A stretch of DNA of 64,000 bases from Escherichia coli (GTDB taxonomy: Bacteria > Pseudomonadota > Gammaproteobacteria > Enterobacterales > Enterobacteriaceae). This document shows, one piece after another, positions 6,536-8,110 of this stretch (positions are counted from its first letter, which is position 1; each line of letters starts with the position of its first letter). The DNA is taken from NCBI RefSeq assembly GCF_003334815.1, contig NZ_QOWO01000021.1; one strand, written 5' to 3'. Under the pieces are notes generated by a model, which did not search any database, was not told where the DNA came from, and worked only from the letters and a program-made list of their open reading frames with translations. The position numbers and the translations under genes were made by a program.

Positions 6536-7303
6536 ACTTACTGGCCGGTCATCGTCGAAAAAGTGGAGCGCCTGCCGCCGCATTTGGCGCAGGTGCAACA
6601 GCAGGGACAGCGAATTAATCAGCTTCGTGATTTGGGCTGGTGGAAGCAAGCCAGTCTGGAAGAGCTGGAGGATATCCGCATTCATTTGCGCGGTATCATG
6701 CACCTGATGGAAAAAGACGCGACGCCGAAATTTGGTTCGATACAGGTGGATATTACCGAAGATGCGAACCTGATCCAGACGGAACCCCGCAAAACCAACA
6801 TCCGTTCGATTGATTTCAAACTCTATCGCCAGCAAGTTCAGGGGGCGCTGGAGCCGCTGTTCCAGCAAAACCCGGTTCTGAAGAAAATCCGCAACGGCGA
6901 GCCAGTCACGCAAAACGAGCTGGATGAACTGGCGAAGCTGGTGCTGATCCAGAACCCCAACGTTGATATTCGTGCGTTGAAAGAGTTCTATCCGCAGGCA
7001 ACCGCCAGCCTGGATAAACTTTTGCGTACCATCATCGGGATGGACAGCGACGCGGTGGAGGTGCGCTTTGCTCAGTTCGCCGCTGATAACAGTCTGACCA
7101 GCCAACAACTGCGCTTCCTGTCATTACTGAAAAATCACAGTCGCGATTACGGCACAATTGAAATGCGGCAGCTCTTTGAACAGCCTTTTACGCATATCCA
7201 CAACGAAGGCGTTACCGGTGTGTTCCCTGATATAGCGCAGATCGCCCGCTTGCAAAAGATAGTCGAAGAGTTGGGTGTTGTGACCGACGCAGCGACGGTA
7301 TAA
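6536..7303 (+). pseudogene. hsdR: Apparent 3-prime fragment of a Type I restriction enzyme R-subunit gene (hsdR C-terminal region)
   Basis: In-frame region opens at 6536 with no upstream helicase/nuclease part; recalled resemblance to HsdR C-terminal (EcoEI-R-like) domain; GTG start at 6563 has no obvious RBS. Confidence 0.45.
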
Positions 7304-7366
7304 TACGCACATGACAAGCCCTGGCAGCGGGGCTTTTGTATTTAAAACAGGATATAAACGCTAACA

Positions 7367-8110
7367 ATGATCACTGGTGACTTAAAAAGTAAAATCGACG
7401 GCCTGTGGGAAGATTTCTGGGTGGGTGGTATCACCAACCCGCTGACCGTAATCGAACAGATCACCTATCTAATGTATTCTCGGATGCTGGATACTCAGGA
7501 ACAACGCGACGAGAAGCGTAAACAAATCGCAGGTATTGATTTTAAACCGCGTTTTACGCCAGAACAGCAGGAGTTCCGTTTCAGTCACTATAGCAACCTT
7601 GGCTCGGATGAGATGATGGAAGTGGTACGCGATGGTGTATTCCAGCATTTTCGTCAGCTCGGCCAGGCCGATGCGTCGAAGGTAACGCTGCTGGGCAACT
7701 TTATGAAAGATGCTCGTCTGGAGATTGTTAAGCCGTCATTGCTGACCAAAGCGGTTGAGGTGATCAAAAACCTGCCATTGGATCGCGGCGACACCAAAGG
7801 CGACCTTTACGAATACCTGTTAAGCAAGCTGACCACTGCTGGAATCAACGGCCAGTTCCGCACGCTGCGCCACATTATCCGCACAATGGTTGAAATGATG
7901 GAGCCGAACCCGGCTCGCGGCGAGACGATTTGCGCTCCAGCCTGTGGCACCGGTGGTTTTCTGGCAACCAGCTATGAATATCTGCTGGAGAAGTACAGCT
8001 CGCTGGAATCCATTCATACTGAGATTGGCACCAACGAACTTGGCGAGCTGGAAGAGCAAAAAATCTTTACCGGCGATCTGCTGACACCGTGGCGTAACAG
8101 GCGATATTGA
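7367..8110 (+). pseudogene. hsdM: Truncated Type I R-M methyltransferase gene (hsdM, N-terminal ~247 codons)
   Basis: HsdM N-terminal domain followed by GQFRTLRHIIRTMVEMMEP...ICAPACGTGGFL (AdoMet motif I); frame stops before the catalytic NPPF motif. Confidence 0.6.

Follow-up and report, generated by a model that had tools for sequence, protein, structure and literature searches.

Remnants of a type I restriction-modification operon beside an intact putative helicase-nuclease gene in an Escherichia coli genomic island

Are the two short open reading frames (ORFs) that precede a large helicase gene in an Escherichia coli genomic island working parts of a defence system, or are they what remains of one? 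The window analysed here is a 64-kb stretch of DNA, within which the hsd remnants and the helicase region were compared with E. coli genomes and with other genera. A first-pass annotation had read the two ORFs as a decayed type I restriction-modification (R-M) locus, and comparison with intact alleles bears this out at base resolution. We conclude that the locus very probably represents the non-functional remains of an EcoAI/EcoEI-like hsdR-hsdM-hsdS operon, destroyed by two illegitimate-recombination events. The features concerned, in window coordinates, are as follows.

6074-6313, minus strand: symE-family toxin gene, 79 aa as annotated; part of the cdi/symE block, not of the R-M locus
6541-6542, unstranded: left rearrangement joint, where the cdiI-symE flank runs into hsdR codon 885, the two overlapping by 1 nt (three-way alignment of the window, ERP001 and intact hsdR)
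6542-7303, plus strand: hsdR' pseudogene, codons 885-1137 and the stop of a 1137-aa type I R subunit (tblastn, DNA alignment, Pfam, PGAP)
7316-7335, plus strand: terminator-like hairpin and T-run after the hsdR' stop, in the native hsdR-hsdM intergenic region (a pattern match from a consensus scan)
7367-8098, plus strand: hsdM' pseudogene, codons 1-244 of a 544-aa type I M subunit (profile searches, codon comparison, PGAP)
8098-8099, unstranded: deletion joint, with ~2011 bp missing relative to CU42ET-1 (hsdM codon 245 to hsdS codon 371)
8099-8110, plus strand: three out-of-frame codons (RRY) and a TGA (8108-8110) from hsdS 3' sequence, which close the hsdM' ORF
8100-8171, plus strand: hsdS' remnant, the last 23 codons and the stop
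8178-11459, plus strand: intact gene for a 1093-aa protein that joins an SF2 helicase to a C-terminal region resembling RdgC and PD-(D/E)xK nucleases
11612-12877, plus strand: gene for a predicted membrane protein of 421 aa (440 aa from an upstream ATG)

The upstream frame is open from 6536, right behind an in-frame TGA at 6533-6535, and contains an ORF (6563-7303) of 246 aa that begins with GTG. It matches the PADLOC REase_I model (E=2e-39) at profile positions 862-1099 of 1107, which agrees with its earlier description as the C-terminal part of an R subunit that opens abruptly. By tblastn, HsdR' shares 98.4% amino acid identity with residues 885-1137 of the intact HsdR of E. coli CU42ET-1. 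Its sole Pfam domain is EcoEI_R_C, a C-terminal helical region; Pfam detected no nuclease or motor domain in it, and NCBIfam gave no match. The native start is absent, and the first candidate is the internal GTG at 6563, which has no evident ribosome-binding site. Farther upstream, a near-consensus extended -10 promoter-like site (6362-6390, plus strand, 10 of 12 matches) points into hsdR'.

Up to position 6541 the window matches the cdiI-symE flank of E. coli ERP001 at 99% identity; beyond this point ERP001 runs on into unrelated DNA. The resulting joint is identical in eight genomes (H1-H8). The symE-family gene in this flank is probably N-terminally truncated. An IS200 copy (5400-6065; tnpA 5443-5952, hairpin 6034-6052) lies between the cdiI gene and symE in the window and is lacking in strains A12, 154 and ERP001. 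We considered it as the cause of the hsdR truncation and ruled it out, since A12 and 154 carry the left joint without it. Rfam searches of 5400-13500 found no SymR or other RNA in the hsd remnant region; they returned STnc490, at the 5' end of the IS200 copy, and a chance match.

The second ORF (7367-8110, 247 aa) matches the first 219 of 491 positions of the type I methyltransferase model (E=3.8e-69), and the strength of this match and of the HsdR profile match places the observation far beyond chance. According to Pfam, HsdM' comprises the whole HsdM_N domain and positions 4-74 of the 311 in N6_Mtase (23%). Motif I (ICAPACGTGGFL) occupies residues 188-199, and the NPPF motif, residue 306 of intact HsdM, is absent. 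This is the HsdM N-terminal region running through motif I and stopping before NPPF that had been described from the sequence. Both remnants share 96.5-97% DNA identity with intact E. coli alleles. Two substitutions in HsdM', P167L in the conserved FRTPRH motif and D190A in DPACGTGGF (motif I), were gained by the window's sub-lineage after the deletion. In a codon comparison of two intact alleles and three decayed copies, the nonsynonymous to synonymous ratio was 6:14 on the decayed branch and 5:47 elsewhere (Fisher p=0.06, not significant), which is at most suggestive of an excess of nonsynonymous change on the decayed branch. Because the original hsdM start codon and the sequence upstream of it are retained, the cell may still produce an HsdM N-terminal polypeptide of 247 aa.

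Intact counterparts place the break points precisely. Those of CU42ET-1 (locus L002; K8B87_RS03275/70/65) and strain 1303 (L012; EC1303_RS19900/895/890) are EcoAI/EcoEI-like (type IB-like) operons with EcoEI_R_C on HsdR. The CU42ET-1 cassette encodes HsdR of 1137 aa, HsdM of 544 aa and HsdS of 394 aa, and continues 6 bp past the hsdS stop with a 1093-aa helicase and then a 421-aa hypothetical protein. Window positions 6541-8098 align without gaps to L002 8001-9558 (96.5% DNA identity), and 8090-13330, comprising the hsdS tail, helicase and hypothetical gene, align to L002 11563-16792 (96.8%). The hsdRMS of strain 1303 is 97.0% identical over the bases kept in the window. The window thus resembles the intact operon in gene order, in the intergenic region and in its 96.5-97% DNA identity over 6541-8098, but lacks hsdR codons 1-884, hsdM codons 245-544 and hsdS codons 1-371, and carries P167L and D190A in addition. 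Alignment to full-length hsdR and hsdM, which the first-pass annotation had proposed as a check, sets the joints at 6541/6542 and 8098/8099; hsdR, hsdM and hsdS remnants all align collinearly and at high identity, with mappable break points. The fragments' identities, the two joints, the existence of intact relatives and the motif substitutions that came later are all seen directly.

The annotation had also proposed a search for a related island with intact hsdRMS at the same position, and strain 1303 provides it. Its island has the window's layout: upstream lies an array of orphan cdi toxin/immunity genes, downstream an integrase remnant and a gene for an outer-membrane protein. In strain 1303 a SIR2 gene stands in place of the helicase cargo. 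In the window itself, orphan cdiA-CT/cdiI modules lie within positions 1-5400. The downstream part of the island (15520-20176) holds an integrase remnant (15520-15705), a Tia-like outer-membrane protein gene and a phosphoethanolamine transferase gene, with an intact integrase (18638-19903, minus strand) and tRNA-Phe (20101-20176, minus strand). In CU42ET-1 and PK8568 the hsd-helicase block lies at tRNA-Leu (leuX), which argues that the hsd-helicase module has moved between islands. A premature stop interrupts the gene at 14439-15359 (minus strand) for an HNH restriction endonuclease that binds phosphorothioate DNA (NCBIfam NF045808, E=1.9e-114). Sister-genome annotation lists this gene as a pseudogene, which makes it a second decayed defence gene within the island.

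The deletion joint reads ...CCGTGGCGTAAC|AGGCGATATTGATAG..., with hsdM through codon 244 on the left and hsdS from codon 372 on the right; the C at 8098 could derive from either parent. In each parent the joint is preceded by a 6-nt direct repeat, TGGCGT. Clean repeat-mediated deletion was nevertheless ruled out, as the crossover lies 3 nt past TGGCGT and the overlap is 1 nt. Following the hsdS stop (8171), the native 6-bp spacer leads to the helicase ATG at 8178. The locus had been described as cut off exactly where the helicase begins, which does not hold: the joint is 79 bp upstream of the helicase start, and native hsdS 3' sequence lies between. Helicase translation would begin 67 nt past the hsdM' stop at 8108-8110, against the 68 bp first reported, and this “68-bp spacer” is the hsdS tail, because 8100-8171 are the last 23 hsdS codons and the stop. 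The statement that hsdS is missing is therefore right in that no functional hsdS is left, and wrong in that its 3' end survives. No further hsd homologue, including a second hsdS, was found in the 64-kb window. Nine genomes have the right joint, and eight of these have the left one as well, which points to a single origin of the decayed form.

These boundaries coincide with those in public annotation. RefSeq/PGAP labels 6542-7303 a pseudogene for an R subunit C-terminal fragment “missing N-terminus” and 7367-8098 a pseudogene for subunit M “missing C-terminus”, the limits found here for hsdR' and hsdM'. Strain C5 (NZ_CP010123) matches the window at 100% identity, and the EC556 chromosome at 99.9%. 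NZ_CP010123.1 is a 214-kb record found among the plasmids in PLSDB, and may be a mislabelled chromosomal fragment; the locus is chromosomal in the sister strains EC556 and A12, and in A12 it adjoins tRNA-Phe and dsbD.

How might the operon have been lost? The ancestral operon very probably stood immediately upstream of the helicase-nuclease gene, in a genomic island of E. coli at tRNA-Phe. A rearrangement that joined the cdiI-symE flank to hsdR codon 885 removed the promoter, the start codon and the nuclease and motor domains. An internal deletion of ~2.0 kb took the NPPF motif and the rest of HsdM towards its C-terminus, together with both HsdS target-recognition domains. The helicase-nuclease gene came through undamaged. 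In a type I enzyme, HsdS reads the DNA, HsdM methylates it by means of motifs I and IV, and the HsdR nuclease and motor cut it (PMC11411939). Of HsdR, with its PD-(D/E)xK nuclease and SF2 motor domains, the window retains residues 885-1137 only; in place of a complete HsdM N6-adenine methyltransferase domain it has one with NPPF deleted and D190A in motif I; and of HsdS, with its two target-recognition domains, it has the last 23 codons only. Complete loss of R-M function is most likely, and the remnants would be unable to recognise, methylate or cut DNA and would be drifting as pseudogenes. We infer that they have acquired no new role. That they persist in nine genomes of varied host origin may be due to recent common ancestry, or they may retain some use, such as that of a transcribed leader for the helicase.

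The gene that survives is best read as encoding an uncharacterised helicase-nuclease. Pfam domains in the 1093-aa protein are limited to ResIII/DEAD/Helicase_C (residues 138-466), and no model in PADLOC, NCBIfam or PHROG names it beyond “helicase”. Sequences related to its C-terminal ~590 aa fall into at least 1275 clusters at 50% identity, and the full-length proteins among the matches listed have this region fused to a helicase core, for a total of ~1000-1100 aa. Six residues (D948, E952, D955, H972, K974 and Q994) are invariant in an 82-sequence alignment. AlphaFold gave a confident full-length model (pLDDT 89). Foldseek searches of it against the PDB returned mostly generic SF2 cores (Mfd, RadD, XPB) and told nothing about the C-terminal half, and a PDB sequence search matched the helicase core only. 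The C-terminal 599 aa were modelled alone to resolve that half, again with confidence (pLDDT 93). Literature searches on the helicase or on its linkage to hsdS turned up only papers on R-M and defence islands in general. From its context, a defence role is likely, and the gene probably works on its own. The 421-aa predicted membrane protein accompanies it only in E. coli.

All 15 helicase-bearing E. coli genomes have the helicase directly after hsdS or an hsdS remnant of the same family. Five have intact hsdRMS (CU42ET-1 and four other strains), nine show the window-type decay, and one, PK8568, decayed independently: hsdR is gone, the last 95 hsdM codons are left, and the hsdS allele is different. 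Homology between PK8568 and the window starts exactly at the helicase ATG, 8178. Among 5426 complete E. coli genomes, 410 have intact-length hsdR-hsdM of this R-M family; since ~400 E. coli genomes carry the R-M without the helicase, the two are separable modules.

Beyond E. coli we looked up 11 genomes and five plasmid loci individually, an unsystematic sample. Helicases in the 11 genomes are 53-85% identical to that of the window, and in seven the helicase lies downstream of hsdRMS (loci L008, L010, L011, L013, L014, L015 and L022, helicase at ~9001-13282). Serratia, Pectobacterium, Ketobacter, Marinobacter and Methylomicrobium share the order sigma-54 enhancer-binding protein, hsdR (EcoEI_R_C), sometimes RmuC, hsdM, hsdS and helicase. 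Their HsdR is 1129-1134 aa long, split into two ORFs in Pectobacterium, and the hsdS-to-helicase gap is 11-14 bp (6-14 bp with E. coli included). Geomonas and Vibrio have the identical order plus one cargo module between hsdS and helicase. Downstream of the helicase these cassettes often carry PARIS-like AAA_15/AAA_21 pairs or YjiT/YjiV-type (Druantia-like) genes. The hsd-helicase cassette looks like a conserved backbone with variable cargo slots. The helicase stands alone in Advenella, one metagenome-assembled genome, Microbulbifer and Alcanivorax, and its five plasmid copies (34-48% identity) are likewise alone, among mobile and defence-type genes. Judged by gene order, the helicase is a separable module, habitually docked after the hsdS of this EcoEI_R_C-type R-M family.

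Could the remnants still serve the helicase? One alternative, compatible with decay, is that the proteins are dead and the hsdM' DNA has been kept as promoter and 5' transcript for the helicase and the gene downstream. The deletion spared the hsdM start region and took internal sequence only. In the intact cassette, with the helicase and next gene 6 bp past hsdS, the two look co-transcribed with hsdMS, and tight hsdS-to-helicase spacing (6-14 bp) recurs across six genera. Directly upstream of the helicase there is no strong sigma-70 match. Weak sigma-70-like hexamers (CTGACA-16-GATATT, 8081-8108) lie across the deletion joint, and because they straddle it, a fusion promoter for the helicase is conceivable there. 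However, the counts from promoter and terminator scans were not above shuffled background, so we claim no promoter. The PK8568 helicase ORF is intact although the hsdM 5' end and promoter are gone, and helicase homologues stand alone in many genomes and plasmids. On balance we consider a retained leader unlikely, though it deserves more credence than the other alternatives.

A broader reading makes the helicase-nuclease a dedicated R-M partner, maybe a back-up or second-line effector, with R-M death reflecting redundancy or conflict, not chance, and hsdM' serving as the helicase promoter and leader. The R-M system is dead in 10 of the 15 helicase-bearing E. coli, via two independent events, and hsdR is split in Pectobacterium; the helicase follows hsdS in at least eight genera, and upstream there is often a sigma-54 enhancer-binding protein. 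We regard this reading as doubtful, somewhat more so than a leader role by itself. The frequent death of R-M beside the helicase is of some interest, with few independent events behind it and an unsystematic sample.

The proposal that one defence module displaced another, with a helicase cassette inserting into or recombining with the R-M operon, cutting hsdM and removing hsdS, is very improbable. G+C content does fall from ~0.51 to ~0.40 across 8000-9000, and the ~400 E. coli with the R-M and without the helicase could be taken in its favour. But the native 6-bp joint between the hsdS stop and the helicase ATG is kept, with the break 79 bp away inside hsdS/hsdM sequence. Intact hsdRMS followed by the helicase occurs in five E. 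coli and six other genera, and in Pectobacterium alike, apart from its split hsdR. Because the PK8568 homology begins at 8178, the left edge of the helicase module is there and not at 8099.

Least credible of all is the notion that HsdR-C (246 aa) and HsdM-N (247 aa) function as standalone proteins and make up a four-gene system together with the helicase and membrane protein. In its favour, the two ORFs are uninterrupted and similarly long, and the arrangement recurs in nine E. coli genomes. But relatives carry full-length hsd genes, and in the 11 genomes and five plasmids helicase homologues never stand beside short conserved ORFs, their hsd neighbours being of normal length (1129-1149, 509-540 and 353-396 aa, with hsdR split in Pectobacterium) or absent, which refutes it on the test that the first-pass annotation had itself set.

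Does the surviving gene belong to a known system? The closest likeness we found in organization is to TgvAB, which lies inside the hsd operon of Vibrio cholerae VPI-2 and protects against phage when expressed without the type I R-M genes (PMC11411939). As there, a nuclease/NTPase gene that is not part of R-M is tightly packed in an hsd operon and probably co-transcribed; the accessory gene of the window differs in encoding a 1093-aa putative helicase-nuclease after hsdS, and its host R-M is decayed. At the sequence level the helicase is not a member of Hachiman (HamA/HamB), Hna or the type ISP enzymes. Helicase and nuclease-like region form one polypeptide, which has an RdgC-like domain in addition and lacks a methyltransferase. 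PADLOC models detected no Hachiman pair of a HamA DUF1837 nuclease and HamB, and the helicase's best PADLOC match is to PbeA (E=9e-9), over the helicase core only.

The remnants themselves are a case of ordinary R-M decay in a mosaic island, captured already by public annotation. For annotators, the “spacer” before the helicase should be recorded as the hsdS tail. The strain itself should neither methylate nor restrict DNA by this type I system. Only the linkage of hsdS and helicase, which recurs in several genera, might repay further work. The helicase-nuclease gene is best studied as one that outlives its R-M partner.
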